A stretch of 64,000 nucleotides of DNA from an uncultured Gammaproteobacteria bacterium. GTDB taxonomy: Bacteria > Patescibacteriota > Microgenomatia > JAMCZE01. Of this stretch, positions 22,537 through 46,818 are shown one piece after another. Both the position numbers and the translations under genes were made by a program. The stretch is from contig CAZXMM010000001.1 of assembly GCA_964641255.1 (NCBI GenBank), forward strand, positions 246,973-310,972, written 5' to 3'. Within the stretch, counting starts at the first letter, position 1, and each line of letters opens with the position of its first letter. The notes below the pieces were generated by a model. It was given only the letters and a program-made list of their open reading frames with translations. It searched no databases and had not been told where the DNA came from.

Positions 22537-22559
22537 TCCTTTCTAGTATAATGGGGTGC

Positions 22560-22585
22560 GTGCCGAAAATCGGCACTCGTTTTTT
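22560..22585 (+). terminator. Hairpin GTGCCG-aaaat-CGGCAC plus TCGTTTTTT, 25 nt upstream of fusA; terminator of the upstream gene and/or fusA leader attenuator
   Basis: Inverted repeat plus T-run; preceded by TATAAT at 22547-22552. Confidence 0.5.
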
Positions 22586-22610
22586 GCAATGATTCCAACA
22601 ATAGAATTTT

Positions 22611-24710
22611 ATGTCTGATGCCAAATCCCGTCTTTATCCTCTAGATCGTATCCGTAACATCGGTATTATTGCTCATATTGATGCTGGTAAGACCACTACT
22701 ACTGAGCGGATCCTTTTTTATACCGGAAAAACCTACAAAATTGGCGATATTGATGATGGTAATACCGTGATGGACTGGATGCCTCAAGAGCGGGAGCGGG
22801 GTATAACTATTGTCTCGGCAGCAACTACGACTTTTTGGAAAGACGTTCGCATCAATATTATTGATACTCCCGGGCACGTGGATTTTACTGCCGAAGTGGA
22901 GCGTTCACTTCGGGTTCTTGATGGGGCAGTAATGGTTTTTGACGGCAAGATGGGGGTGGAGGCCCAGTCAGAAACTGTCTGGCGTCAGGCTGACAAATAT
23001 GACGTTCCTCGAATTTGTTCGGTTAACAAAATCAACGGTATTGGCGGGAGCTTTATCAACTCTTTGAAAGATATTCAAGAAAAGCTCAGCCCCAATGCTG
23101 TAGCCATGATTCTCCCTATTGGACTAGAACACGATCATCGTGGTGTGGTGGATTTACTCACACGCAAGGCCTATACCTACAAAGGCCCAGAAACGGTGGA
23201 ACTGATTGAAGAAGAAATTCCAGCAGACATGAAGACTGAGGTAGAACTTTACCGTACCATGTTGGTTGAAAAAGCTGTCGAAGTCGATGACAAGTTATTG
23301 GAAAAATACCTCGAAGGAAAAGAGCCAACAATTGAAGAGCTTAAGGCTGCTATTCGCAAGGGAACCATCGAAAAGAAATTATTTCCGGTATTCGGTGGGG
23401 ACAATCGGATGTGTACAGTGCGCTTACTTCTTGACGCAATCGTTGACTATCTGCCCACTCCGCTTGACCGCCCAGCTATTACTGGAGTTAACCCTAAAAG
23501 TGGGGAGAGTGAGACGAGAGAACAAAAAACCGATGCTCCTTTTTCTGGACTAGCTTTTAAGATTCAGCTCGATCCTCACGTAGGGAAGCTCTATTATGTT
23601 CGTGTTTATTCGGGAACGATTAAAGCTGGCTCTTATGTTTACAATGCTACTAAAGGTCAACAAGAACGTGTGGGCCGGCTACTATTTATGCACGCTAACG
23701 ATCGAGAAGAGATCCAGGAGGCTTACCCTGGAGAAATCGTGGCTGTTGTGGGGCTTAAAGAAACAAGAACCGGAGATACACTTTCAAACCCTGATCATCC
23801 TATAATTCTTGAAGGGATTTCTTTTGCTGAGCCAGTTATCTCGTTTGCTATCGAGCCAAAGACTAAATCAGACCAAGAAAAAATGGGGTATGCCCTGCAG
23901 CGGGTGATGGAGGAGGACCCCACGATTAGACTTCGGTCCAACAAAGAAACCAATCAGACAATCATTTCTGGTATGGGCGAGTTACATCTTGAAGTCTGGG
24001 TCCGCCGCATGAAAGAAGAAATGGGAGTAGATACGAACGTTGGAGCCCCCCAAGTAGCTTATAAAGAAACAATTACTATGCCAGCCGAGGGTGAAGGGAA
24101 ATATATTCGCCAAACCGGAGGCCGTGGTCAGTATGGTCACGCCATGATTAAGATTGAACCTAAACCCAGGGGCGAGGGGTGGGAATTTATTAATGCCATT
24201 AAAGGTGGGACTGTTCCCGCTGAGTACATTCCCTCAGTAGAAAAGGGGACTAAAGAGTGTGCTAACAATGGGATTCTGGCTGGGTTCCCATTAACTGATA
24301 TTAAAGTTACGTTTTATGACGGCTCTTATCATGATGTGGACTCCAGTGATGTAGCGTTCCAAATTGCCGGATCCATGGCGCTTCAGGATGCCACCAAGAA
24401 AGCCGGACTGGTGCTCCTAGAGCCGATCATGAAGGTGGAAGTAACCACCCCGGACGAATTTATGGGAGATGTCATTGGTGATTTATCCAGCAAGCGGGCC
24501 CAGATTCTCGGTTCCACTAAAAGAGGCAGCGCCACCATTATTATGGCTCTGGTTCCCCTCGCTGAACTGTCGGGATACGCTACCAAACTGCGAAGTATTT
24601 CCCAAGGTCGCGCCAGTTATTACATGGAACCCAGTCATTACGAAGAAACGCCCAGAAATGTCCAGGAGGGAATTGTCGCCAAGTATAGTACTGCTAAAGC
24701 GGGGTCGTAG
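22611..24710 (+). CDS. fusA: Elongation factor G
   Basis: [21 protein letters not shown] GTPase motifs; 699 aa. Confidence 0.97.
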
Positions 24711-24732
24711 TTCTATCACCAAATCTCCCCCC

Positions 24733-24762
24733 TTGCTAAAGAGAGTAAGCACAGTTTATAAT
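24733..24762 (+). promoter_or_regulatory. Sigma70-like promoter for tuf: -35 TTGCTA, 18-nt spacer, -10 TATAAT
   Basis: Hexamers read directly; the -35 is the 3' end of the repeated CAAATCTCCCCCCTTGC motif. Confidence 0.55.
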
Positions 24763-24858
24763 CATTACTAGCCTTACATCGAGGCAGGTCTTTTTTGCCA
24801 AAAAGGCAATCTAGGGAGCAAGAGTTAATTACTTAATTTTTATTAATCTAAAAACAAT

Positions 24859-26046
24859 ATGGCAGACGCAGCAAAATTCAATCGTTCCAAGCCTCACGTT
24901 AATATTGGTACCATGGGTCACGTTGATCATGGAAAAACCACCCTGACCTCAGCGATTACCACGGTACTCGCCAAAAAGGGTTTGTCCAAGGCGATGGCCT
25001 ACGATCAAATCGATAATTCCCCCGAAGAAAAGGCTCGTGGTGTCACTATCAACATTACTCACGTCGAATATGAGACGGAGAATCGGCACTATGCTCATAT
25101 CGATATGCCGGGTCACGCCGACTATATCAAAAACATGATTACCGGAGCCGCCCAGGTTGACGGCGCGATTTTAGTAGTTTCTGCTCCTGATGGCCCGATG
25201 GCCCAGACCAGAGAGCATTTACTACTTGCTAAGCAAGTTAACGTCCCGGCTATTGTAGTCTTCTTAAATAAAGTCGATATGGTTAGCGATCCTGAACTGC
25301 TTGATTTAGTCGAAGAAGAGGTTCGTGAGCTACTGGACAAATACGGGTTCCATGGTAAAGACGTTCCGATTATTCGTGGCTCTGCCCTTAAGGCTACCGA
25401 GGGGGATGCAGAGAATGAGCAGAAGATTATGGACCTAATGGCAGCGGTTGATTCCTATATTCCCACTCCAGTGCGTGAATTAGATAAACCCTTCCTGATG
25501 CCAGTTGAAGACGTTTTCTCAATTAAAGGTCGAGGAACAGTGGTAACGGGGAAAATTGATCGTGGCGTTATTAAAGTCAACGAAGAAGTGGAGATTGTGG
25601 GTCTTAAGGCTACCCAAAAAAGTGTGGTGACCGGAGTAGAAATGTTCCGCAAACAACTTGATGAGGGCCAAGCCGGGGATAACGTTGGGCTGCTTCTAAG
25701 AGGGATCGAAAAAGATCAGGTGGAACGTGGACAAGTACTCGCTAAACCTGGATCAATTACTCCCCACACGGAGTTTGAGGCCGAAGTCTACATTCTTTCT
25801 AAGGAGGAAGGCGGACGTCATACACCATTCTTTACAGGCTATCGTCCCCAGTTCTACATTAGAACTACGGATGTTACCGGTGAAGTTACTCTAAATGAGG
25901 GAGTAGAAATGGTCATGCCGGGAGATAATGCCAAGATGAAAGTGAAGCTGATTCAACCGGTAGCTCTTGAGGATGGAATGCGTTTTGCCATCCGTGAAGG
26001 CGGCCACACCGTAGGAGCCGGAGTGGTTAGTAAAATTATTGCTTAA
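24859..26046 (+). CDS. tuf: Elongation factor Tu
   Basis: [22 protein letters not shown] motifs; 395 aa. Confidence 0.97.
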
Positions 26047-26065
26047 GGATTAGAGCCTTATTTAC

Positions 26066-26092
26066 ACGCCCCGAAAACTTCGGGGCGTTTTT
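26066..26092 (+). terminator. Rho-independent terminator after tuf (ACGCCCCG-aaaactt-CGGGGCGT plus TTTTT)
   Basis: 8-bp GC-rich stem plus U-tract, 20 nt after the tuf stop; only ~40 nt before rpsJ, so rpsJ is probably expressed by read-through. Confidence 0.8.
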
Positions 26093-26132
26093 AGACACTA
26101 AAGCTGTTGGGGACTTTAGTTAATTTAAAAAA

Positions 26133-26441
26133 ATGCCCAAAGGCAGAATTCGTGTACGTTTAAAAGCTTATGACGGGAGAGTGCTTGACTCTACCTGTCA
26201 GTCAATTCTTGACGCAGCCATTCGCACTGGTGCGAGTGTTATTGGTCCCGTCCCTCTTCCCACCGATAAAAGTATGATTACTGTCAACCAGTCTCCCTTT
26301 GTTGATAAAAACTCCCAAGAACACTTCTGGATCAAAGTTCACAAAAGACTGATTGATATCATGGAACCAACCGATAAGACTATTGATTCGCTCATGCATC
26401 TGGAACTGCCGGCGGGAGTAGACATTGAAATTAAGATGTAA
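26133..26441 (+). CDS. rpsJ: 30S ribosomal protein S10
   Basis: MPKGRIRVRLKAYD...; 102 aa. Confidence 0.95.
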   Translation: MPKGRIRVRLKAYDGRVLDSTCQSILDAAIRTGASVIGPVPLPTDKSMITVNQSPFVDKNSQEHFWIKVHKRLIDIMEPTDKTIDSLMHLELPAGVDIEIKM

Positions 26442-26583
26442 CCCCGGAGCCCGAGAAGTGTATATGCTTCAACCTACAAATATTGGACAGTGTTTCCAAC
26501 TACTCATTGTCGCCTCTTGTTTTTGATCGCGTGTTGATTACTATGGATTATTGCAAAAGTAATCCGTTACAAACAAATAATTT

Positions 26584-27687
26584 ATGGAGAGCAAGCATCA
26601 CTACGTTTTAATCATGGCGGGGGGATCAGGAACGAGACTGTATCCTAAATCTCGGGAGAATGCTCCAAAACATCTTTCAAAAATTGTTGGAGACCAGACT
26701 CTTCTTCAACAAACCTTTAAAAGAGTCTCCCAAATAGTCTCAGTAGAAAATATCTATATCTCCACCAATTACAAATACGTTAATCAAATTCTCGAGCAAG
26801 TACCGAAGTTAAAAAAACATCAACTTATTTGTGAACCTGAAAAGAGAAATACCGCCCCAGCGTTAGCTCTAGGAACAAGTGTTATTGCAAGAAGTGACCC
26901 TAAGGCTGTTATTGCTGCAATCTCTTGTGACCACTATGTCCTTAAAGAAAAAAATTTTGTCAATGCGTTTAAACTAGCCTTAGCAGTAATTGAGTCCCAC
27001 CCGGATCGCATTCTAGTACTGGGAATTGAACCAAGCTCCCCCCACACTGGGTACGAATATATTGAGAAAGATGGAATCTTTTGGAAAAAAAATCAAGATC
27101 ACGTTTTTAATGTTAAGCGCTTTGTTGAACGCCCTGCGCATAGGGATATTGCTCAAAAATTTATTGATCAAGGTTACTTATGGAATGCGGGTTATTTCAT
27201 TTTTAGTGCCGAGTGTTTTATGAGTAAGATTAAAGAATTTTTACCAGAAGTCCATGCCGGGTTAGAAGCTATTACTGTCGCTGCAGAGAAAAAAAATTAC
27301 GAGGACGTGCTCAAGGAAGAGTTTTTGAAGTTTTCTGATGCCCAGATTGATAAGGCGGTAATGACTAAAATTGATAATTTAGTCGTGTTACCTGCTGATC
27401 TTGGCTGGTGCGATGTAGGCTCTTGGGATGTGGTCCGGAGTTTAATCGAAGAAAAGAAAAAAGATGAAAACAGCAATTATGCCGATGAAGAATTTATCGC
27501 GGTTGACTCCCACAATGTTACTGTTTTAGGCGATAATAAAGGACAGCTAGTAGCAACCATTGGATTGAGTAATATTACTATCATAAATACAGGAGATGCC
27601 ATTGTGGTAATGGAAAACGGCCGAGGACAGGAAGTTAAAAAGATCGTTGATGAAATTAAAAAAAGAAAGCTAGATTTTCTCTTATAA
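26584..27687 (+). CDS. manC: NDP-sugar pyrophosphorylase, mannose-1-phosphate guanylyltransferase-like
   Basis: LIMAGGSGTRLYPKSR nucleotidyltransferase motif; 367 aa with no C-terminal isomerase domain. Confidence 0.75.
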   Translation: MESKHHYVLIMAGGSGTRLYPKSRENAPKHLSKIVGDQTLLQQTFKRVSQIVSVENIYISTNYKYVNQILEQVPKLKKHQLICEPEKRNTAPALALGTSVIARSDPKAVIAAISCDHYVLKEKNFVNAFKLALAVIESHPDRILVLGIEPSSPHTGYEYIEKDGIFWKKNQDHVFNVKRFVERPAHRDIAQKFIDQGYLWNAGYFIFSAECFMSKIKEFLPEVHAGLEAITVAAEKKNYEDVLKEEFLKFSDAQIDKAVMTKIDNLVVLPADLGWCDVGSWDVVRSLIEEKKKDENSNYADEEFIAVDSHNVTVLGDNKGQLVATIGLSNITIINTGDAIVVMENGRGQEVKKIVDEIKKRKLDFLL

Positions 27688-27692
27688 AGATT

Positions 27693-29051
27693 ATGATTGT
27701 TGACCAAAGTATTTTTAAGGCTTACGACATTCGGGGGATCTATCCCGAGCAAATTAACGCTGAAATGGCCTATGCTATTGGACAGGGATACGCTAGTTAT
27801 GTTAAACCCACGAAACCTGTGGCAGTAGGCTACGATGTTCGCCTTCATTCTCACGAGCTTCAAAAAGAGGTAATCAGGGGATTGATTGACGCTGGTGTCA
27901 GCGTCATTGATGTTGGACTTATCTCAACAGAAATGGTTTATTTTGCTGTGGGCCATTTTGGTTTTGGCGGAGGAATACAGGTTACTGCTTCTCACAATCC
28001 CAAAGAATGGCACGGAATGAAATTCGTCAGAGAGAGTGTTATTCCCCTTTCTGGTGATAATGGAATCAAAGAAATTAAAGAGTTTGTTTTAAAAGGAGAG
28101 AGGATAGTTCTAGGAAAGAAAGGGACTGTAGAGCACCAAAATATTTTGGGAGACTTTTGTAATTATTTGCTCACCTGGATTGATCCAAAGAAACTAAAGC
28201 CGCTAACCATTGTCTATAATCCTAACTTTGGCTTTGCAGGTAAAGTTTTGGAACAACTAGTGGGACTCGGTAAACTTCCTGCAGCAATGATTCCCTTAAA
28301 CGCTGAACCTGATGGAAACTTTCCCAAAGGTAGGCCAGACCCTTTTATCCCAGAAAATAGAGTGGAATTTGCAGCATTAGTAAAAGAGAAGAAAGCCGAC
28401 TTGGGAGTAACATGGGATGCTGATGCTGACCGAGTATTTTTTTGCAGCGATGGAGGAACTTTTATTGAACCATATTTTACTAACGCGATCCTAATCAAGG
28501 CGCTTCTTGCGAAGTATCCAGGAGAAAAGGTTCTATACGATCCCCGCTATGCCTGGGCCCTAATAGATGCTACAGCTGCAGCCGGGGGAAGTTCCTACCT
28601 TGATCGGGTAGGCTATGTTTACATCAAAAGACGGATGCGCCAAGACAATATGGTTTTTTCCGGCGAGTCTAGTGGGCATACCTATTTTCGAGATTTTTGG
28701 TTTTCAGACTCGGGGATGATCCCACTGCTTTTGGTTTGGGAATTGCTGTCGGTAGAAAATAAGACACTCTCACAGTTGGTTAAACCTATTATGCAAAAAT
28801 ATTTTATTTCTGGCGAATTAAATTTTAAGACCGATAAAAAGACAGAAATTATGGCCGAACTCGAAAAAGCCTATTCCAGCACAAAAATTGATCATACAGA
28901 TGGAATTACGCTCGAAAGTACCGACTGGCGAGCTAATGTGCGGGCTTCCAATACCGAGCCTCTCCTGCGATTAAATGTAGAGGCAAGATCCCAAGTAAAA
29001 ATGGAGGAGAAACGTGACGAATTAGTTAGTTTTATCAATCAGAAATCCTAA
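27693..29051 (+). CDS. manB: Phosphomannomutase/phosphoglucomutase
   Basis: Active-site TASHNP; GVTWDADADR metal-binding loop; 452 aa. Confidence 0.8.
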   Translation: MIVDQSIFKAYDIRGIYPEQINAEMAYAIGQGYASYVKPTKPVAVGYDVRLHSHELQKEVIRGLIDAGVSVIDVGLISTEMVYFAVGHFGFGGGIQVTASHNPKEWHGMKFVRESVIPLSGDNGIKEIKEFVLKGERIVLGKKGTVEHQNILGDFCNYLLTWIDPKKLKPLTIVYNPNFGFAGKVLEQLVGLGKLPAAMIPLNAEPDGNFPKGRPDPFIPENRVEFAALVKEKKADLGVTWDADADRVFFCSDGGTFIEPYFTNAILIKALLAKYPGEKVLYDPRYAWALIDATAAAGGSSYLDRVGYVYIKRRMRQDNMVFSGESSGHTYFRDFWFSDSGMIPLLLVWELLSVENKTLSQLVKPIMQKYFISGELNFKTDKKTEIMAELEKAYSSTKIDHTDGITLESTDWRANVRASNTEPLLRLNVEARSQVKMEEKRDELVSFINQKS

Positions 29052-29061
29052 ACGCCAGCTC

Positions 29062-29091
29062 TTGCTTTTGCGCTTGCCTCGATGGTACAAT
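29062..29091 (+). promoter_or_regulatory. Sigma70-like promoter for the rplC-led operon: -35 TTGCTT, 18-nt spacer, extended -10 TGgTACAAT
   Basis: Hexamers read directly, downstream of the manB stop. Confidence 0.5.
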
Positions 29092-29147
29092 ACGCAGGAA
29101 TGCTAGAGTTCTCTAAACTCACTATAGCGTAGTTGGATGTAGAGAGA

Positions 29148-29186
29148 CTTTTACCTTGTAAAAGTCCCGTATCCGGGACTTTTTTT
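29148..29186 (+). promoter_or_regulatory. Leader attenuator candidate: two mutually exclusive hairpins, the second an intrinsic terminator 20 nt upstream of rplC
   Basis: Hairpin A is CTTTTAC-ctt-GTAAAAG (29148-29164); hairpin B is AAGTCCCG-tatc-CGGGACTT plus TTTTTTTG (29162-29186); the arms overlap at 29162-29164. Confidence 0.5.
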
Positions 29187-29206
29187 GTGCTTAACCGAGC
29201 TCAACT

Positions 29207-29848
29207 ATGAATACCTATTTCGGCTATAAAAAAGGACAGTCGCACGCTTTTGACGAGGCGGGTATCCGGGTGCCGGTAACCATGGTTCATATGCCTCCAA
29301 CCATGGTGGTTGGGAAACGTACCCTGGAAAAAAATGGCTATACCTCCTGGCAAATTGCTCTAGGAACCAAAAAGAACCTCACTAAACCAATGCTTGGACT
29401 CCTAAAAAATCTTCAAGAAAAAATTTCTCCCCAACATATCCGCGAAATTGAAATCACCGACCAAGATACTAAAAGCGTTGGAGAAAAAATTTCAGTTGAC
29501 GAAGTTTTTACTGCGGGAGACACTATTAATGTCAGTGGAGTAAGCACTGGAAAAGGATTTGCGGGAGTAGTCAAGCGCTGGGGCTTTCATGGTAGTCCCA
29601 TGACCCATGGAACTTCTAATCGTCAGCGTCATGCTGGATCAATTGGCCAAACCACTACTCCGGGGCGGGTTTATAAAGGCAAGAAAATGGCCGGACACAT
29701 GGGATCAGAAATGATTACCATTCGCAATCTTCGGGTTTTTGCTGTCAAACCAGAAGAAAATATCTTAGTGATTCGTGGGCTGGTTCCTGGAAAAGTAGCC
29801 GGACTGTTAAAGATTACTAAAGTGCCCGCTAAAGCCAAAAAATCATGA
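29207..29848 (+). CDS. rplC: 50S ribosomal protein L3
   Basis: GKGFAGVVKRWGFHG motif. Confidence 0.95.
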   Translation: MNTYFGYKKGQSHAFDEAGIRVPVTMVHMPPTMVVGKRTLEKNGYTSWQIALGTKKNLTKPMLGLLKNLQEKISPQHIREIEITDQDTKSVGEKISVDEVFTAGDTINVSGVSTGKGFAGVVKRWGFHGSPMTHGTSNRQRHAGSIGQTTTPGRVYKGKKMAGHMGSEMITIRNLRVFAVKPEENILVIRGLVPGKVAGLLKITKVPAKAKKS

Positions 29849-30540
29849 AAGTAATTGCTACCAACTTACCAAAAGAATTGTTCGCTCAAAAAGCAGCCCC
29901 GGCTCTAATTTCCCAGGCAGTTCGAGTGTACCTGGCTAACCAGCGCCAAGGCACCCAAAGTGCTCTGACTCGGGCCGAGGTTAATCGCACTGGTAAAAAG
30001 GTTTATAAACAAAAAGGAACCGGTGGAGCTCGCCATGGTTCGAGGAGAGCCCCTATTTACGTTGGGGGTGGAGCCACTTTTGCTCCCAAACCGCGCGACC
30101 ACTCTTTGTCGATGAATATTCGTATGAAGAGAAAAGCACTTTTGGGAGCTCTAAGTGTTCGCGCTGCCGAAAAAAACGTTCTGGTGGTTTCAGGATTAGT
30201 AAGCGCTAGTGGCAAAACTAAAGAACTGGCCCAGTTTATAGCGACCGTTTTGCCAACACCAGTTAGTAATGTACTCATCATCACAGACATTTTAAGAAAT
30301 AACGTGCACCGCGCGGGGAAAAATCTTAGAGGAGTCACAGTGACAACTCTTGAACATTTAACCACGCATGCTGTTGTTCGTTCTAATAAAATTTTAATCA
30401 TGGAAGAAGCTTTAACTCTGACTACTCCCGCTGTCAAGACAGCAGTAAAAGCAGAAGTCAAAGAAAAAAAAGTCGTAAAGGCAGAAAAGAAAGTCGTAAA
30501 AGCGAAGGCTACAGTTAAAAAAGTAGCAGCTAAAAAATAA
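29845..30540 (+). CDS. rplD: 50S ribosomal protein L4, with Lys/Val-rich C-terminal tail
   Basis: KGTGGARHGSRRAPIYVGGG; 4-nt overlap with rplC. Confidence 0.93.
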   Translation: MKVIATNLPKELFAQKAAPALISQAVRVYLANQRQGTQSALTRAEVNRTGKKVYKQKGTGGARHGSRRAPIYVGGGATFAPKPRDHSLSMNIRMKRKALLGALSVRAAEKNVLVVSGLVSASGKTKELAQFIATVLPTPVSNVLIITDILRNNVHRAGKNLRGVTVTTLEHLTTHAVVRSNKILIMEEALTLTTPAVKTAVKAEVKEKKVVKAEKKVVKAKATVKKVAAKK

Positions 30541-30845
30541 TGCATACAATTATTAAAAAACCAGTTATCACCGAACAGTCCATGAGAGAGGCTGCGCTGG
30601 GGCGCTTTACTTTTGTGGTTGAAAAAAGTGCTAATAAAGCTGAAATTGCTCAAGCTATTAAAGAAGCTTTTTCGGTCACCCCCGTCAGGGTACAAACCCA
30701 AATTGTTAAGGGGAAAAGCCAGCGCTCCCGCAAAAGCCGGACTGTAGCAGTGAGCGCTGCCTGGAAGAAAGCCATTATCACTTTAGTCTCTGGGCAAAAA
30801 ATTGATCTCTTTGAGATTGGTGAACAGGCGGCAGTAACAAAGTAA
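30540..30845 (+). CDS. rplW: 50S ribosomal protein L23
   Basis: L23-like 101-aa protein in the expected position after rplD. Confidence 0.9.
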   Translation: MHTIIKKPVITEQSMREAALGRFTFVVEKSANKAEIAQAIKEAFSVTPVRVQTQIVKGKSQRSRKSRTVAVSAAWKKAIITLVSGQKIDLFEIGEQAAVTK

Positions 30846-30873
30846 CCATATGTTAAAACAGAGAAAAGGTGCC

Positions 30874-31680
30874 ATGAGTAATAGATTTATGACCGGACTC
30901 AACTACCGGGCTATTCTCACGGCTACTACACCCGAAGAGTCGTTAATTGAGCTCTTACCTAAGAATTCTGGCCGCAATGCTACCGGCAAGATTACTGTGC
31001 GTCACCAAGGTGGGCGGAACAAACGCATGTACCGGCGTATTGATTTTAAGCGCGACAAGCTAGATATCACTGCTACTGTAGTATCGATTGAATATGATCC
31101 AAACCGGTCTGCCAACATTTCTTTGCTTAAGTATGCCGATGGTGAAAAACGCTACATTATTCACCCTGAAGGTCTAAAAGTCGGAGATAAGGTGATAGCG
31201 TCAAAAACCGCCGAGGCTCGCTTAGGGAATGCTGTGCCGCTAGCTAAACTGCAGATTGGTACCGTTATTCACAATATTGAGCTGGCAGCTGGTCGCGGTG
31301 GTCAAATAGTCAGAGGAGCAGGAACCGGGGCGTCTGTGTTGGCAAAAGAAGGGGACTATGTTACGATTAAGCTCCCTTCAGGGGAACTTCGTCTGATTCA
31401 CAAAGATTGTTTTGCAACAGTTGGAGTCATTGATAACGGCGAGTGGAAAAATGTGGTTTTTGGCAAAGCGGGACGAAATCGCCATATTGGCGTCAGACCG
31501 ACCGTTCGTGGTACTGCCCAAAATCCTCGGACTCATCCACATGGGGGTGGAGAAGGTAGATCAGGAGAGGGTCTTAAGCAGGCCAAAACTCCTTGGGGGA
31601 AGCCCGCTCGTGGGCTACGAACTCGCAACAAAGCGAAGTTTAGTAACCAATATATAGTGGAGCGTAGAAAGAAGCGGTAA
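30874..31680 (+). CDS. rplB: 50S ribosomal protein L2
   Basis: [41 protein letters not shown]; start moved to the ATG at 30874 because AGAAAAGGTG lies 4 nt upstream (ORF track starts at 30850). Confidence 0.93.
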
Positions 31681-31684
31681 TTTT

Positions 31685-31969
31685 ATGGCACGTTCATCCA
31701 AAAAAGGACCATATGTGGACCCCAAGCTACTGATTAAGGCTAATAAGGCCAGGGCAATGGGGGATAAAACGCCCATTAAGACTTGGGCAAGACACAGTCA
31801 GATTCCGCCAGAGTTTGTTGGTCTTAATTTTGGTATCCATAATGGCCGAGTACATGTGCCGGTATTTATAACTGAGGCTATGGTCGGCCATCGGTTAGGA
31901 GAATTCGCTCCGACCCGAACTTTTAGAGGTCATGGTCGGATTGTAGCTCGCATTCTTAGTAAAACTTAA
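31685..31969 (+). CDS. rpsS: 30S ribosomal protein S19
   Basis: [12 protein letters not shown]...[16 protein letters not shown]. Confidence 0.95.
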
Positions 31970-31973
31970 AAAT

Positions 31974-32318
31974 ATGATCGAAGTTAGTGCTATTTCTAAA
32001 TATGTTCGGGTGGCACCACGAAAATTGCGTCTGTTGGCAGACGCCCTGAAAAATAAAGAAGTAGATGCCGCTTTAACAAAACTTAGCTTTTTGCCCAAAA
32101 GTGGTACCGTACCGATGGTGAAAGCCCTGAAATCGGCAGTAGCTAATGCGGTAAACGTTAAGGGTCTTACACGAGCCAATCTTAAAATTAAGAATATTTT
32201 GATTGATGAAGGGTTTAAGATGAAACGTCGAGGCAAAGGACGAAAAGCAACGTCAGGATACGGCGGTGGGGTTATTCAAAAAAGAACCAGTCATATCACA
32301 GTTATTTTACAGGGCTAA
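31974..32318 (+). CDS. rplV: 50S ribosomal protein L22
   Basis: SPRKLRLLADAL...; 114 aa. Confidence 0.92.
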   Translation: MIEVSAISKYVRVAPRKLRLLADALKNKEVDAALTKLSFLPKSGTVPMVKALKSAVANAVNVKGLTRANLKIKNILIDEGFKMKRRGKGRKATSGYGGGVIQKRTSHITVILQG

Positions 32319-32324
32319 AACAGT

Positions 32325-33041
32325 ATGGGAAAAAAGATTCATCCGATCGGATTCAGATTAGGGCCAGTTTATACTTGGACCTCGCGCTGGTTTGCTACTA
32401 AGAATCGTTATAAGACGCTAGTCTTGGAAGACGCCAAGATCCGTAAAGCGCTGATGGCCAAGCTAAAAGCTGCGGGAATCGCGAGGATAGAAATTGAACG
32501 TTCCATTAATAAAATTAGTCTGACATTGTTTGTCTCTCGTCCGGGAGTAGTAATTGGTCGCGGTGGAGCAGGAATGGACGATCTGAAGAAACATATTATC
32601 AGTAACCTACTAACACTTAATCCTGAGGATAAAAATGCCCAAAAAGTTGACATTAAAGTTGAGGCTGTCAAAGAACCTAACCTTGACGCCTATCTAGTGG
32701 CGGTTAATATTGCTGACCAACTAGCCAAGCGTCTTCCCGCCAAGCGGGTAATGAAGCAGAGCGTGGAAAAGGCTATGGTAGCCGGAGCTAAAGGAATTAA
32801 AATTCGCCTTGGAGGACGTATTAATGGAGCGGAAATTGCTCGGGTAGAAAAGGCCAAAGACGGAGTGGTTCCTCTTAGCTCCATTAAAGAGCGTATCGAC
32901 TTTGCTGCGTATCCGGCTTACACCAGGTCGGGCTATATTGGAGTTAAGGTCTGGATTTGTCTGCCTGAGAATGCCGGAATTTTAGGAGGACGAAGTGAAG
33001 CCCAGCCAGTAGTTAACAATAATTCACCTGTAACAAACTAA
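32325..33041 (+). CDS. rpsC: 30S ribosomal protein S3
   Basis: MGKKIHPIGFRLG...KH domain...GRGGAG. Confidence 0.95.
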   Translation: MGKKIHPIGFRLGPVYTWTSRWFATKNRYKTLVLEDAKIRKALMAKLKAAGIARIEIERSINKISLTLFVSRPGVVIGRGGAGMDDLKKHIISNLLTLNPEDKNAQKVDIKVEAVKEPNLDAYLVAVNIADQLAKRLPAKRVMKQSVEKAMVAGAKGIKIRLGGRINGAEIARVEKAKDGVVPLSSIKERIDFAAYPAYTRSGYIGVKVWICLPENAGILGGRSEAQPVVNNNSPVTN

Positions 33042-33042
33042 C

Positions 33043-33462
33043 ATGCCAGTACTTGCACCACGTCGAGTAAAATACCGTCGCACTTTTAAAGGACAGCGTC
33101 CCGGTCTTGCTCAGCGGGGTAACACGGTAAATTTCGGTGACTACGCAATAATTGCTCAGAGTAGGGGTTGGGTCAGCGCTAGACAGATAGAGTCGGCTCG
33201 GAAAACCTTGACCCATTTTACTGCTAAAGGTGGACGAGTGTGGATTAGAATTTTTCCTGATAAGCCGATTACCAAAAAACCGCTGGATGTAAAGTGTGGT
33301 GGTGGTAAAGGTGATTTACTGGAGTATGTAGCGGTAATTAAGCCTGGACATATTCTTTTTGAAATGGCAGGTTTACCTAAAGATCAGGCTCAGGAAGCTA
33401 TTCGCCGAGCAGGACATAAATTAGCAGTCAAAACCAAATTTATCGAGAAAAACGTTAGCTAA
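33043..33462 (+). CDS. rplP: 50S ribosomal protein L16
   Basis: MPVLAPRRVKYRR...VWIRIFPDKP. Confidence 0.95.
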   Translation: MPVLAPRRVKYRRTFKGQRPGLAQRGNTVNFGDYAIIAQSRGWVSARQIESARKTLTHFTAKGGRVWIRIFPDKPITKKPLDVKCGGGKGDLLEYVAVIKPGHILFEMAGLPKDQAQEAIRRAGHKLAVKTKFIEKNVS

Positions 33463-33466
33463 AAAT

Positions 33467-33676
33467 ATGAAACCAAAAGATATTGCTAGTCTAAGAACTA
33501 AAAGTGTTGCCGAGCTTACTAAACGAGCTAGGGAACTTAATGTACAGATGGCTAAGCTTAAGGGGGAAATGACCCTCAGGAGACTTAAAAACGTCAATGC
33601 GGTCAAGAACGTAAAGCGGGAGTTAGCTGTAGTAATGACTATTGTAAGGGCCAATCAATTAAGTAAGCAGAAGTAG
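33467..33676 (+). CDS. rpmC: 50S ribosomal protein L29
   Basis: 69 aa, helical, Lys-rich, between rplP and rpsQ. Confidence 0.9.
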   Translation: MKPKDIASLRTKSVAELTKRARELNVQMAKLKGEMTLRRLKNVNAVKNVKRELAVVMTIVRANQLSKQK

Positions 33677-33677
33677 T

Positions 33678-33908
33678 ATGAAAACATTTACCGCCAAAGT
33701 AGTTGCTAATAAATCAAATCAGACTGTCGCTGTTGAGACAGACGTGTTTCGCGCTCACGCCAAGTATCATAAAATATTGCGTCACACAATTAAGGTCCTA
33801 GCTCACAACACTCTTGAGGGAATTAATGAAGGAGATATGGTAGAAGTTGCCGCTTGTGCACCCAAAAGTGCCAAGAAGCATTTTAGTGTAGTAGCCAAAG
33901 TCAAATAA
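33678..33908 (+). CDS. rpsQ: 30S ribosomal protein S17
   Basis: 76 aa, OB-fold-like, in the expected position. Confidence 0.9.
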
Positions 33909-33909
33909 T

Positions 33910-34284
33910 ATGATTCAGACACATACTGTTTTAAAACCAGCCGACAACACAGGGGCCCATAAGCTCAGGGTGATCCATCTCTATGGTGGTTCCAAGCGGA
34001 AATTTTCTTACGTTGGCGATATTGTCCGCTGCGTTGTGGACGGTGCTAATCCTAATGGGGCAGTCAAAGATTCAGAGATGGTATTTGCAGTTGTGGTCAG
34101 ATGTAAAAAAGAACAGCGTCGTAGTGATGGGAGCTATATTCGTTTTAGCGATAACGCCGGAGTCGTTATTACGGCTAGAGACAACCTGGATCCACTGGGT
34201 AGTCGCGTTTTTGGCCCAATAGCCAGAGAGCTTAAGGAAAAAGGTTTTAACAAAATAGTCTCAATGGCCACCGAAGTAATTTAA
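33910..34284 (+). CDS. rplN: 50S ribosomal protein L14
   Basis: [16 protein letters not shown]... Confidence 0.95.
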
Positions 34285-34295
34285 GTCTAACAACT

Positions 34296-34607
34296 ATGAA
34301 AATGAAACTTAAAAAAGGAGATAAAGTGGTAGTCACGGTCGGTAAAGATCGGGGCAAAGAAGGGGCCGTGGAAAAGGTATGGCTTAAGTCAGGTCGGGTA
34401 AGTGTTGGCGGAGTGAATATTTTTAAACGCCACAGGAAAGCCCGGGGTGAGGGACAAAAGAGCGGCATTATCGATATGGTCAGACCCCTAGCTGTAACCA
34501 GTATAGCCCTAATCTGTCCCAAATGTAAAAAACCAACCCGGATCGGCTACAAAGTAACTAGCAAAGATAAAGTACGTGTCTGTAAAAAATGTGGAGAGGA
34601 AATCTAA
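34296..34607 (+). CDS. rplX: 50S ribosomal protein L24 (KOW) with C-terminal zinc-ribbon extension
   Basis: KKGDKVVVTVGKDRGKEG KOW motif; C-terminal CPKC...CKKC. Confidence 0.9.
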   Translation: MKMKLKKGDKVVVTVGKDRGKEGAVEKVWLKSGRVSVGGVNIFKRHRKARGEGQKSGIIDMVRPLAVTSIALICPKCKKPTRIGYKVTSKDKVRVCKKCGEEI

Positions 34608-34610
34608 ATT

Positions 34611-35156
34611 ATGACTTTAAGAGATAAATACCAAAAGGAATTTGTTACTCGGCTTAAGGAAGAACTACAGCTTGATAATGTAATGTCGGTGCCAAAACTT
34701 ACCAAGATAGTTATCAATGTAGGCGCTAAAGAAGCCTTAACCGACAAAAAGGTTCTAGCTGAGATTAGTGATCAGATTGGACTTATTGCTGGGCAAAAAC
34801 CATCAGTTCGTATCGCTACTAAATCTATTGCCGCTTTTAAGTTGCGAGAGGGTCAAGAAGTTGGGGTGGCCGTGACTCTAAGAGGACAACGCATGTATGA
34901 ATTTTTTGAAAAGCTTGTTAATATCGTCTTTCCTAGAGTTAGGGATTTCCGCGGAGTCAGTGTTAGTGGTTTCGATGGTCGAGGCAATTTCAGTGTTGGA
35001 TTCAAAGAGCAGATTGTGTTTTCTGAGATAGAATACGGAAAAATTGATAGAATACGGGGCCTACAGGTAACAATAGTGACGACAGCAAGAAACGATAAAG
35101 AAGGTAAGGCTCTATTAACAATCCTTGGCATGCCTTTTGAAAAGGCAACTAAATAA
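34611..35156 (+). CDS. rplE: 50S ribosomal protein L5
   Basis: L5-like 181 aa in the expected position. Confidence 0.95.
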   Translation: MTLRDKYQKEFVTRLKEELQLDNVMSVPKLTKIVINVGAKEALTDKKVLAEISDQIGLIAGQKPSVRIATKSIAAFKLREGQEVGVAVTLRGQRMYEFFEKLVNIVFPRVRDFRGVSVSGFDGRGNFSVGFKEQIVFSEIEYGKIDRIRGLQVTIVTTARNDKEGKALLTILGMPFEKATK

Positions 35157-35172
35157 TACAGTTTTTTAACCT

Positions 35173-35358
35173 ATGGCTAGAGTTGGATCAGTAGTAAAAG
35201 CAAATAAAACGCCAAAATTTTCAGTCCGGAGCCACAGCCGTTGTCAGTTGTGTGGCCGTAGTCGGGCTTATATTAGACGATTTGGGTTATGTAGACTTTG
35301 CTTCCGTGAGCTCGCTCATAAAGGAGAGCTTCCTGGAGTTATTCGTGCAACATGGTAA
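35173..35358 (+). CDS. rpsN: 30S ribosomal protein S14 type Z (zinc-binding)
   Basis: 61 aa, CQLCGR...CRLC. Confidence 0.92.
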
Positions 35359-35741
35359 ACGATCCTATCTCTGACATGCTAACTCGTATAAAAAATGGCT
35401 ACATGGCCAAGAGATCTGTCGTGGAAATTCCGTACACCAAAGTAGTCGGGGTGATCGCTAAGGTTCTAGTTGAGAACAAGTATTTAAATTCTATGGAAGT
35501 GACAGGAGATCTTAAAAAAACCCTCGTGGTTACTCTAAGATATGAAGCCAAAGAGCCAGCTATCACCGAGATTCGCCGCGTCAGTCGACCAAGTCTTAGG
35601 GTGTATGCTGGTAATAAGAAGTTACCCAAGGTACTGGGGGGGATGGGTAAGGCCCTTATTTCAACACCGGCGGGAGTCATGACCGATCATCAGGCCAGGA
35701 AAGCCAATTTGGGTGGTGAAGTAATTTGTGAAGTATGGTAG
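35352..35741 (+). CDS. rpsH: 30S ribosomal protein S8
   Basis: [13 protein letters not shown]... Confidence 0.95.
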
Positions 35742-35750
35742 CCAAATTAT

Positions 35751-36302
35751 ATGAGTAGAATCGGAAAAAAACCAGTTAAAATTCCCGAAGGAGTGACCAT
35801 TAGTCAAGAGGGAGCAGTGATAACCGTAATTGGTCCGAAGGGAACACTGACCCAATCTTTTAGACCAGAAATTGAACTAGTGATTGAGAATGGCAAAGTT
35901 CTTGTCAATCGGGTAGCGGAGACTCCTAAGGCCAAGTCTTTACATGGTTTGTCCCGAACACTTTTAGAAAACATGATGCAGGGAGTAAGTAGTGGTTGGA
36001 ATAAGGGGTTGGAATTAGTTGGGGTGGGGTACCGAGCCTCGCTAGAGGGAACTACCCTAGTTTTAACTCTAGGTTTTTCCCATCCGGTTAAAGTGGTGCC
36101 ACCGCCAGGGATTGTTTTTGAGGTCATGGAGAACGTGAGAATAAATGTTAAAGGTGTAGATAAACAGCAGGTTGGCGAAATAGCTGCTCAAATTAGGCGT
36201 GTCAAGCCACCAGAGCCCTACAAAGGCAAGGGAATCAGATATATTGGCGAAGTCGTTAGGCGTAAGGCTGGAAAAGCGGCAAAAGCCGCAGGGACAAAGT
36301 AA
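35751..36302 (+). CDS. rplF: 50S ribosomal protein L6
   Basis: MSRIGKKPVKIPEGVT... Confidence 0.95.
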   Translation: MSRIGKKPVKIPEGVTISQEGAVITVIGPKGTLTQSFRPEIELVIENGKVLVNRVAETPKAKSLHGLSRTLLENMMQGVSSGWNKGLELVGVGYRASLEGTTLVLTLGFSHPVKVVPPPGIVFEVMENVRINVKGVDKQQVGEIAAQIRRVKPPEPYKGKGIRYIGEVVRRKAGKAAKAAGTK

Positions 36303-46743: not shown

Positions 46744-46818
46744 TGGTCGGGGCGAGAGGAATTGAACCTCCCACTTCTCGGACCCCATCCGAGCGGTCTA
46801 CCGATGACCTACGCCCCG
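46744..46818 (-). tRNA. tRNA-Pro (anticodon GGG), CCA encoded
   Basis: Hand-folded 75-nt cloverleaf: acceptor CGGGGCG/CGCCCCG with C1:G72, D-stem GGTC/GACC, anticodon stem CTCGG/CCGAG, loop AUGGGGU, G37, T-loop TTCAATT, discriminator A plus CCA. Confidence 0.85.

Follow-up and report, generated by a model that had tools for sequence, protein, structure and literature searches.

In the stretch of DNA analysed here (64,000 nucleotides, referred to as the window), the gene for ribosomal protein L3, rplC (29207-29848, plus strand; Pfam Ribosomal_L3), is followed by rplD (29845-30540; Pfam Ribosomal_L4) and further genes of the S10/spc cluster, and rpsJ (26133-26441) lies upstream. Between manB and rplC, directly upstream of the latter, there is a leader of about 90 nt, all elements of which are located on the plus strand. 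Shine-Dalgarno sequences were found neither at rplC nor at the other genes of the window. For this leader, a sequence-only reading had proposed a promoter and two mutually exclusive hairpins, A and B, the second of which would be an intrinsic terminator.

The promoter is indeed present. It consists, as read from the sequence, of a -35-like box TTGCTT (29062-29067) and an extended -10 box TGgTACAAT (29083-29091), separated by a spacer of 18 nt. As the -35 box agrees with the consensus at only three of six positions, the promoter does not appear in the list obtained by a scan of 18 kb. Both boxes keep their positions in the relatives, all of which contain TTGnnn, a spacer of 17-18 nt and TAnAAT or TAnnAT at the same place (TAAGAT in L088), in most cases with TGn in front of the -10 box. 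An invariant R-AUG follows the -10 box at a distance of 6-9 nt in all but one of the 16 sequences, the exception being L098 with 16 nt. Transcription would begin about 7 nt past the conserved -10 box, roughly at 29099 (predicted range 29098-29100).

A covariance model of the conserved 5' domain of the leader, R1, retrieved 19 copies with 16 distinct sequences, all directly upstream of rplC (53-74 bits, one match each). In 80 loci of other lineages it found no copy, in the window no second one, and a pattern scan of viral contigs gave no matches. All compared sequences derive from metagenome assemblies; one contig (L099) begins 53 nt before rplC and is uninformative for the leader. A search of genome contigs with the L3 protein was dominated by generic L3 patterns, its best match being only 47% identical (Daviesbacteria). 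In one relative the 91-nt leader is 100% identical to that of the window, although the rplC DNA shares only 83% identity and the gene upstream is unrelated. This identity and the recurrence before rplC in 19 related loci lift the feature beyond chance, and the comparison suggests that the leader is under purifying selection. The genes preceding it vary: manB, a hypothetical gene, an insert containing a toxin-antitoxin system, or rpsJ. In L089, L091, L092, L096, L098 and L100 the leader directly follows rpsJ, elsewhere it comes after unrelated genes, and its own promoter is always present. In agreement with the sequence-only reading, the element thus belongs to rplC and is not a terminator of manB. 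The accompanying idea that the separation of rpsJ left rplC as the first gene of the operon must be given up, since leader and promoter are found between rpsJ and rplC even where there is no insert.

MAFFT and RNAalifold misaligned the variable 3' half of the full leaders and were replaced by a hand-made, N-padded structural alignment. In this alignment 95% of the cells are paired and seven pairs are changed on both sides; having been drawn up to suit the structure, it agrees with it by design. Covariation, for which an alignment of upstream regions had been suggested, amounts to three compensatory pairs in the 5' domain and four of five pairs in the terminator.

The terminator corresponds to hairpin B and is followed by U7, 20 nt before the rplC start codon, exactly as had been described. 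The stem originally given (AAGTCCCG/CGGGACTT) can be extended to AAAAGTCCCG (29160-29169) and CGGGACTTTT (29174-29183), with the loop UAUC and the U-run at 29180-29186, such that the whole element covers 29160-29186. Among the terminator-like sites of the 18-kb scan it is listed second (10 pairs, five of them GC, loop of 4), and it has an energy of -13.3 to -13.8 kcal/mol. A terminator is present in all 16 relatives. The five innermost base pairs are intact throughout the 16 sequences (100% paired) and four of them are changed on both sides, which on comparative grounds indicates that the terminator is maintained by compensatory changes. Among the relatives the gap between terminator and rplC start measures 0-30 nt, which is too short for another promoter; the U7 run of L088 and L090 touches the rplC AUG directly (0 nt). 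At the 3' end of its loop the terminator has AUCC (29171-29174), which is complementary to GGAU at 29135-29138, and in the relatives, too, loop and GGAUG segment are complementary, in several registers (AUCC, GUCCA, CGUUC, CAUUCG, GCAgCC). As a functional pairing this complementarity is suggestive only. Elements composed of a hairpin and a U-run also occur in front of fusA (22560-22586) and between tuf and rpsJ (26066-26092).

The sequence-only reading had captured hairpins A and B correctly and had overlooked the most conserved part of the leader, an irregular hairpin that we call P1/P2 (29110-29145). It lies within the conserved 5' domain (29099-29147), which is the sole significant match of R1 in the 64-kb window (61.9 bits, E = 1.7e-12). 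The 5' strand of P1, UCUCUA (29110-29115), pairs with 29140-29145; P1 is 98.8% paired in the 16 sequences and shows a C-G to U-A double change in the window and in L084. It is followed by an internal loop in which AAC (29116-29118) is opposed to AUG (29137-29139), in columns that are invariant in the 16 sequences, and to which a U.G pair and a bulged pyrimidine are added; the AAC/AUG loop is a candidate site for ligand contact. The P2 hairpin (29119-29136) contains the bulged pyrimidine and a tip that differs in length and sequence, is paired in 90% of cells and carries an A-U to G-C compensatory change in L098. Overall, P1/P2 is 93-95% paired around its invariant internal loop. Covariation is thin because the domain is so highly conserved: there are three compensatory pairs, and each of them rests on a single sequence or a closely related pair. 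In the window, an outer extension of P1 is formed by AGAGU (29105-29109) and 29147-29151 in the terminator (OFF) fold, which is the minimum-free-energy fold of the full leader; this extension is restricted to the subfamily of the window. On the 3' side, the segment GGAUGU together with the P1 3' strand UAGAGA (29135-29145) can change its partner, and GGAUGUAG is nearly invariant among the 16 sequences. It is likely that the part of the leader that senses a signal is this upstream domain rather than hairpin A alone.

When folded, as had been proposed earlier, the region 29090-29206 proved to be structured and folded better than 200 of 200 dinucleotide shuffles (z = -2.9). Hairpin A was found where it had been predicted, with CTTTTAC (29148-29154) and GTAAAAG (29158-29164) enclosing the loop CTT. 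The AAG said to be common to both hairpins is located at 29162-29164 and, if the full terminator stem is considered, the overlap grows to AAAAG (29160-29164). Mutual exclusion depends on the length of hairpin A: the 7-bp version is compatible with the 5-bp core of the terminator (-20.0 kcal/mol), and only extension to 9 bp (29146-29154/29158-29166; GACUUUUAC / GUAAAAGUC, loop CUU, -8.5 kcal/mol) abolishes the terminator; this form occupies seven of the ten bases of the terminator's 5' arm. The two states of the window have energies of -25.7 (terminator, OFF) and -17.6 kcal/mol (antiterminator, ON).

In the relatives, hairpins of different sequence are found at the place of hairpin A, and in most members their 3' arm overlaps or adjoins the 5' arm of the terminator. 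This overlap is kept in most cases, and in five members the hairpin is lost once the terminator core is reserved; hairpin A is absent from L088-L091, L098 and L100. In most relatives the 3' strand of P1/P2 can pair instead with the 5' arm of the terminator, with hairpin A as the tip of this antiterminator; the partners are GGAUGUAGGG and the 5' arm or loop of the terminator. For transcripts that end before the 3' arm of the terminator, 12 of 16 sequences have the antiterminator as their minimum-free-energy fold, and in the other four, among them the window, it comes within 0.5 kcal/mol of the P1 state. Subtracting the energy of the P1 state from that of the antiterminator gives values between -4.1 and +0.5 kcal/mol. 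When the 5' arm and loop of the terminator were permuted, 0-64% of the permutations paired equally well or better (median about 0.1). The modelled antiterminator pairing is compatible with thermodynamics, but the permutations do not separate it statistically from base composition, and the 16 sequences share descent. An alternative hairpin on the 5' side is weak (-3 to -5 kcal/mol; permutation p about 0.1).

Taken together, we consider it probable, with some reserve, that this cis-acting leader of about 90 nt represents a new family of ribosomal-protein leaders that works by transcription attenuation. From its conserved anatomy and position, its terminator and the near-equal energies of both folds, we infer a switch in which the leader RNA would set whether RNA polymerase passes the intrinsic terminator into rplC-rplD and the remaining S10/spc genes. 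The first 50 nt of the transcript would fold as the irregular P1/P2 hairpin with its invariant internal loop, the 3' side of which (GGAUGU-AGGG; AGAGAG in the window) could alternatively pair with the C-rich 5' arm and loop of the terminator, hairpin A being the tip of this alternative helix, the putative antiterminator. In the window, the 9-bp hairpin A would serve as the antiterminator and would be rivalled by the outer P1 extension (29105-29109 with 29147-29151). If P1/P2 is held closed, the terminator should form and transcription should halt 20 nt before rplC; if P1/P2 is free, the antiterminator may last long enough for the polymerase to pass. The agent that would hold P1/P2 is most likely one of the operon's own ribosomal proteins when present in excess, candidates being L4, by analogy with E. 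coli, or L3, the product of the adjacent gene.

The invariant AUG at the start of the predicted transcript allows another explanation. It may open a mini-ORF (29100-29132; MLEFSKLTIA*) that spans the P1 5' strand and the P2 5' arm in all 16 sequences. Leaderless translation of this mini-ORF could unwind P1/P2 and thereby set the balance of antiterminator and terminator, such that read-through would follow translation capacity and not free ribosomal protein. If this were true, a five-segment ribosome-sensing switch would gate more than 20 ribosomal-protein genes and tie their synthesis directly to translational capacity. We regard this as unlikely, even though the frame stays open for 8-11 codons and ends within P2 in 16 of 16 sequences, whereas in the other two frames stops appear after 0-5 codons in most sequences. 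The R-AUG is invariant in all 16 and comes 6-9 nt after the -10 box in all except L098, some of the changes are silent at the codon level (UUA/CUA/CUG, GUU/GUA, UUG/CUG, UUC/UUU), L098 differs through an in-frame 3-nt insertion, and non-canonical initiation would be normal in a genome without Shine-Dalgarno sequences. However, the mini-ORF overlaps bases that are constrained by structure, and its variable codon positions are the unpaired positions. In most members the predicted peptide resembles MLVSPKLTN, but a frameshift in L084 would give a different one; the 16 nt between -10 box and AUG in L098 would yield a transcript that is not leaderless; and the distance of 5-13 nt between stop codon and GGAUGU would make the effects of a ribosome footprint inconsistent. 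Moreover, codon runs and other obvious regulatory codons are absent, and a related leader of the Daviesbacteria type (L004) has no AUG at the corresponding position. The arrangement is reminiscent of the trp, his and pyrBI attenuators insofar as a short ORF covers the first segments of mutually exclusive pairings that are followed by an intrinsic terminator. It differs from them in the lack of regulatory codon runs, in the leaderless nature of the putative ORF, in the frameshift in one member and in an additional layer, in which pairing of segments 1:2 with 3:4 (antiterminator) stands against 2:3 with 4:5 (terminator).

Other explanations concern what P1/P2 senses or whether it senses anything at all. 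A compact domain of 50 nt with invariant unpaired bases and an expression platform next to it could respond, in the manner of a riboswitch, to a small molecule such as an alarmone or a cation, or to a general transcription factor, for example NusB/S10 acting on a boxA-like sequence. S10 (NusE) is encoded just upstream, and the P1 5' strand of L092 (UGCUCUAAAC) loosely resembles boxA, UGCUCUUUAACAA. The boxA-like bases are not conserved, however (GCCCU in most members), and are buried in a helix, no riboswitch or other Rfam family matched even at E values up to 10, and the placement before a ribosomal-protein operon favours a ribosomal protein as the ligand by precedent (PMC7247131), which leaves a sensor of this kind quite unlikely. 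An equally low probability is assigned to a stand-alone small RNA gene of about 85-90 nt between rpsJ and rplC, with the operon being expressed through constitutive leak-through. Conserved promoter, structured body and an efficient-looking terminator would make a complete small transcription unit, but copies were found nowhere except before rplC, always on the same strand and 0-30 nt from its start, and near-degenerate alternative folds are not expected of a plain small RNA. As no promoter follows the leader, rplC depends on read-through in any case.

It is very unlikely that the leader is an unregulated 5' UTR module, in which the GC hairpin shields the mRNA, the U-run serves as a single-stranded landing site for ribosomes and termination is incidental. 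Shine-Dalgarno sequences are absent from the genes of the window, whose starts are preceded by A/U-rich stretches, and the contact between U7 and the rplC AUG in L088 and L090 would suit such a function. In addition, the similar elements before fusA and between tuf and rpsJ may reflect a general 5' UTR trait of this genome, which would count against a specific regulator. On the other hand, a GC stem of 6-10 bp and the U6-U7 after it make up a canonical intrinsic terminator, and a mere module would leave the conserved P1/P2 domain, its invariant loop and the complete identity of the 91-nt leader beside a diverged rplC unexplained. That hairpin B terminates the upstream manC-manB unit and that rplC possesses a separate, unrecognised promoter is extremely improbable. 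The hairpin does lie about 110 nt past the manB stop codon, yet the same element with its terminator follows rpsJ or unrelated genes in relatives, the promoter is located upstream of the terminator, and the space left before rplC amounts to 20 nt in the window and to 0 nt in L088 and L090.

We compared the proposed attenuator with known systems. A scan of the whole window with Rfam at gathering thresholds returned only a tRNA, and for 28950-29350 (plus strand, Rfam 15, E up to 10) there was no relevant match; the leaders of the relatives were likewise without a match. In this comparison, which the sequence-only reading had suggested, no ribosomal-protein leader family of Rfam matches the window or its relatives, and a tRNA and tmRNA search gave no match either. 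The likeness to the E. coli S10 leader that had been suggested does not extend to homology with its hairpins HD and HE, with R1 reaching at most 2.9 bits in the region upstream of E. coli rpsJ. Rfam cannot decide on this kinship because no Rfam 15 model matches the E. coli S10 leader itself. Resemblance to rRNA was considered as well. With filters off, R1 gave only an antisense chance match on the E. coli rrnB operon, and 23S positions 422-472 (GGCUAAAUACUC), a region considered for its similarity, scored 3.6 bits. Searches for GGATGTAGGG and CCCTAAACTCAC in E. coli rRNA gave counts at chance level. As R1 and the motif searches revealed no likeness to E. coli 16S, 23S or 5S rRNA, mimicry offers no means of naming the ligand.

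The E. coli S10 leader combines L4- and NusA-dependent attenuation with translational control; its mechanism is described as pausing stabilised by L4 and NusA, without an antiterminator, and the family is limited to Gammaproteobacteria (PMC3616713). Both leaders belong to an S10-type cluster and contain a conserved hairpin and then a terminator shortly before the first gene, and because the terminator precedes that gene, both operons are expressed only by read-through. In contrast, the E. coli leader is located before rpsJ and that of the window and all its relatives after rpsJ and before rplC, an antiterminator alternative is predicted here, and the hosts are Microgenomates-like bacteria of the candidate phyla radiation (CPR). 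In the infC-rpmI-rplT leader of Bacillus subtilis, binding of L20 provokes premature termination via an antiterminator/terminator switch (PMC1865079). The logic proposed here is the same, i.e., a conserved protein-binding domain would switch between antiterminator and terminator, with binding being only proposed in our case; operon, protein and structure differ, as do the lengths of about 200 nt there and about 90 nt here, and rRNA mimicry is documented for the L20 leader, whereas our comparison with E. coli rRNA yielded none. Eckert and Weinberg (2020) described a candidate L4 leader upstream of rplC-rplD in Archaeoglobi (PMC7247131). This motif and S10-Clostridia (RF03136) are, like the leader studied here, motifs from comparative genomics that precede genes of the S10 cluster and whose ligands are suggested by context or analogy; the former is archaeal and the latter is situated upstream of rpsJ in the Clostridia locus L006.

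Little is known about how ribosomal-protein balance is achieved outside E. coli and a few Firmicutes, and our literature search found no leader from CPR bacteria or Microgenomates. CPR bacteria have small genomes with few regulators, and the window is devoid of Shine-Dalgarno sequences. The leader would be the point at which this lineage controls its largest cluster of ribosomal-protein genes; it is compact, with about 90 nt, and makes a testable prediction, namely that closure of P1/P2 leads to termination. The rpsJ-rplC junction would then be a separately regulated boundary in these bacteria. At the same junction, related lineages carry a structurally unrelated leader, an observation that fits the view that leaders turn over fast and regulatory logic persists.

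The leader is found within the 155-nt spacer that separates the stop codon of the phosphomannomutase gene manB from the start of rplC, in a region where fusA (22611-24710), tuf (24859-26046), rpsJ (26133-26441), a ManC-type nucleotidyl-transferase gene (26584-27687), manB (27693-29051), rplC (29207-29848, start ATG at 29207) and rplD (29845-30540) all lie on the forward strand and the remaining S10/spc genes come after. The elements placed in this spacer by the sequence-only reading are all present: a promoter (TTGCTT at 29062-67, 18 nt, TGgTACAAT at 29083-91), hairpin A (CTTTTAC at 29148-54, GTAAAAG at 29158-64) and the intrinsic terminator, hairpin B, with a full stem of AAAAGTCCCG (29160-69) and CGGGACTTTT (29174-83) and then the T-run (29180-86). 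In a scan of 18 kb, the terminator was the second-listed terminator-like site, with 10 pairs, while the promoter went unlisted because its -35 box matches at just three of six positions. The leader region folds better than 200 of 200 shuffled sequences (z = -2.9). The missing Shine-Dalgarno sequence of rplC is normal for this genome, since such sequences are missing before almost all of the 21 genes whose start regions were inspected (22611-35751); A-rich runs precede these starts instead (e.g., aaaaaaATG or taaaaatATG).

Species representatives contain no close relative, the best L3 match being a protein of 47% identity from a Daviesbacteria genome. L3 proteins in a large protein collection form one level at 93% identity, followed by proteins at 68% or less, and the nearest named one is from Candidatus Microgenomates bacterium. 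As relatives we used the contigs encoding the matched L3 proteins together with hits of a metagenome scan with a conserved-core pattern, which added six loci. Apart from near-duplicates, the sequence upstream of rplC is represented in this set by 16 distinct versions, and all 16 share a common layout. A -35 box TTGnnn, a spacer of 17-18 nt and a -10 box TAnAAT (TAAGAT in locus L088), in most versions preceded by TGn, are followed after 6-9 nt (16 nt in L098) by an invariant R-AUG-YU. An irregular hairpin, conserved in all versions, comes next, and a variable region separates it from a GC-rich hairpin and a U-run, with rplC starting 0-30 nt further on. The U-run consists of six to seven uridines in 14 of the 16 sequences and is interrupted by an A in L087 and L092. 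It is preceded in every sequence by a perfect hairpin of 5-11 bp (-9.1 to -14.3 kcal/mol). A structural alignment was made by hand, with gaps written as N so that MAFFT left it unchanged, and is by its very construction a fit to the structure. In it, each of the inner five pairs of the terminator is 100% paired, and four of these pairs have changed on both sides.

The most conserved segment of the leader, overlooked in the initial reading, is its 5' domain (29099-29147), an irregular hairpin composed of P1 (29110-15 paired with 29140-45), an invariant 3x3 internal loop with AAC opposite AUG, and P2 (29119-25 paired with 29129-36), in which a pyrimidine is bulged, a U.G pair occurs and the tip varies in length and sequence. 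Most members have CCCUA/UAGGG as the P1 strands, whereas the window and L084 have CUCUA/UAGAG, so that both sides of a pair have changed in compensation; a further compensatory change, A-U to G-C, occurs in P2 of L098. In the core alignment, 93% of the cells are paired and three pairs have changed on both sides, a modest covariation support that is due to the very conservation of the domain. R1, a covariance model of the 5' domain, has a single match in the window, at 61.9 bits, and one in each related locus (53-74 bits), always with rplC downstream, and finds none in 80 loci of other lineages, including the Daviesbacteria locus. We regard the terminator and P1/P2 as established elements. The 5' tail of the leader (29099-29112) repeats pieces of the 3' half of P1/P2 (29129-29144); the two segments read AAUGUUAGUUAG and GUUAGUYGGAUGUAG in the relatives, with GUUAGU and AUGU(U)AG common to both. 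This repeat could act as a decoy for pairing or offer a further site for binding.

Could hairpin B simply be the terminator of manB? The gene upstream of the leader is of the manB type in the window, L081, L082, L084 and L093, hypothetical in L083, L085, L086 and L094, and rpsJ itself in L089, L091, L092, L096, L098 and L100, and in four of the latter (L089, L091, L092 and L096) the leader promoter even overlaps the last part of the coding sequence of rpsJ. In the closest relative, L081, rplC is 83% identical at the DNA level and the manB-type gene is unrelated in sequence to that of the window; the 91-nt leader is 100% identical, and the 17 nt from the terminator to the start codon contain three differences. 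The varied upstream genes and the identity of the L081 leader therefore rule out a mere manB terminator. It had also been proposed that the operon begins with rplC because rpsJ was separated from it, but the leader directly adjoins rpsJ in six loci and is thus not a consequence of that separation. The cargo between rpsJ and the leader promoter (26442-29061 in the window) differs among the relatives L082-L100: manC and manB in the window and L084, a NUDIX gene, manC and a long PGM-type gene in L082, PIN and ParE toxin genes with a PGM-type gene in L093, hypothetical genes in L083, L085, L086 and L094, and none in the six loci with adjoining rpsJ. The stretch just 5' of the promoter looks like a tolerated insertion site.

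A putative antiterminator is the link that fits best between the terminator and P1/P2. When the 16 transcripts were cut just 5' of the 3' arm of the terminator, mimicking the moment of decision, the minimum-free-energy folds of 12 had GGG in the 3' strand of P1 paired with CCC in the terminator 5' arm, hairpin A forming the tip of this alternative helix. In several registers (AUCC, GUCCA, CGUUC, CAUUCG, GCAgCC), the terminator loop supplies the partner of GGAU(G) from the conserved loop. In the remaining four, the window included, the P1 and alternative states differ by at most 0.5 kcal/mol; across the family, the alternative state lies between -4.1 and +0.5 kcal/mol relative to P1. Hairpin A has its 3' arm either directly next to the terminator 5' arm or within it. 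Reserving the inner five terminator pairs abolishes hairpin A in L082, L083, L085, L092 and L094, and a separate hairpin A is absent from L088-L091, L098 and L100. The overlap of the two hairpins by AAG, on which their mutual exclusion had been based, is real but insufficient alone, because in the window the 7-bp hairpin A coexists with a 5-bp terminator core at -20.0 kcal/mol. A 9-bp hairpin A (29146-54/29158-66) takes seven of the ten bases of the terminator arm and competes with an outer extension of P1 (29105-09 with 29147-51); P1, P2 and this hairpin together reach -17.6 kcal/mol, and the extended P1, P2 and terminator -25.7 kcal/mol. When the terminator 5' arm and loop were permuted, 0-64% of the permutations (median about 0.1 as a fraction) paired with the G-rich strand at least as well, so that much of the antiterminator potential is a matter of composition, the arm being rich in C and the strand opposite rich in G. 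An alternative 5' hairpin of GUUAGUnAG or GAGUU with AAACUCACUAAC (-3 to -5 kcal/mol) is present in all members; it is weak and not significant in the permutation test. Given these weak permutation controls and the shared descent of the 16 sequences, we grade the antiterminator, a modelled structure, below the terminator and P1/P2.

The main unconventional alternative, in which the leader is translated, appears improbable. The invariant AUG (29100) lies at the expected transcription start and opens a frame of 8-11 codons in all 16 sequences, with the stop inside P2, while the other two frames stop almost immediately in most of them; there are several synonymous differences, and the 3-nt insertion of L098 keeps the frame. 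However, the frame is shifted in L084, 16 nt separate the AUG of L098 from the -10 box, the stop codon stands at varying distances from the switch segment, and the bases concerned are already constrained by RNA structure.

The leader most plausibly represents a new family among the known ribosomal-protein leaders, one that would act by transcription attenuation, a result useful to the specialist and not very surprising. Of the original attenuation proposal, which is supported in part, the rplC-tied leader and the terminator are kept, and the role of rpsJ separation is not. The leader of the window and its relatives matches no Rfam family, a silence that is uninformative with regard to the S10 (L4) leader, as no model of Rfam release 15 detects that leader in the E. 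coli rpsJ upstream region (L103) even at E values up to 0.01. R1 does not match the E. coli S10 leader either, so the rplC leader, which sits on the other side of rpsJ, is analogous and not homologous to the L4 attenuator. No resemblance to E. coli rRNA was found; the window and the loci of the relatives contain no rRNA of the organism itself. On the precedent of L20 in B. subtilis (PMC1865079), of L4 in E. coli (PMC3616713) and of the gene-context rules applied to candidate leaders (PMC7247131), the ligand is most likely a ribosomal protein encoded in the operon, with L4 (by analogy) and L3 (by adjacency) as candidates. Ligand binding would close P1/P2 and free the terminator arm, whereupon transcription would stop, giving the negative feedback that is expected; this mechanism is plausible. 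Among 20 candidate ribosomal leaders assigned by gene-context rules, an rplC-proximal L4 candidate was reported for Archaeoglobi only (PMC7247131), and neither these candidates nor the literature searched include a leader from the candidate phyla radiation.

Other leader-like elements were seen at the same junction elsewhere. The Daviesbacteria-type loci L001 (2815-3003) and L004 (2800-3003) share a different, unrelated rplC leader with the core AAAUUUCAGUAGAUCGUGCGUC...GAUACGACGAUUGA...ACUGAGUGA, a promoter upstream and a hairpin plus U-run just 5' of rplC, and in L002 a hairpin with U8 stands about 45 nt 5' of rplC. The rpsJ/rplC junction therefore seems to be a regulated boundary whose leader structures turn over fast. 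The Clostridia-like loci L006, L008 and L010 contain a conserved hairpin, GGGUCAUGUUGGC-loop-GCCAACCAAUAACC, between rpsJ and rplC, about 60-90 nt 5' of rplC, which matched no Rfam family at the gathering threshold; the sole match in these loci was S10-Clostridia (RF03136), 5' of rpsJ in L006. In the 64-kb window, a tRNA (46747-46818, reverse strand) is the only RNA at the Rfam gathering level. In the tuf-rpsJ spacer (26066-26132), the strong terminator ACGCCCCGAAAACTTCGGGGCGTTTTT (26066-92) is accompanied by another hairpin (26097-26120), and no promoter-like site is visible before the rpsJ ATG at 26133; from this arrangement, read-through of a terminator seems to be required for rpsJ as well. 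Upstream of fusA (22544-22610), a -10-like box TAGTATAAT (22544-52) stands 7 nt ahead of a GC hairpin (22560-76), after which comes TCGTTTTTTG, 25 nt from the fusA ATG, a second promoter-hairpin-U-run-gene arrangement within the window. The promoter-like site ranked best in the scan, TTGCTA-18-TATAAT (24733-62), lies in the fusA-tuf spacer, with two small hairpins downstream, each with a U-run (24771-85 and 24795-809).
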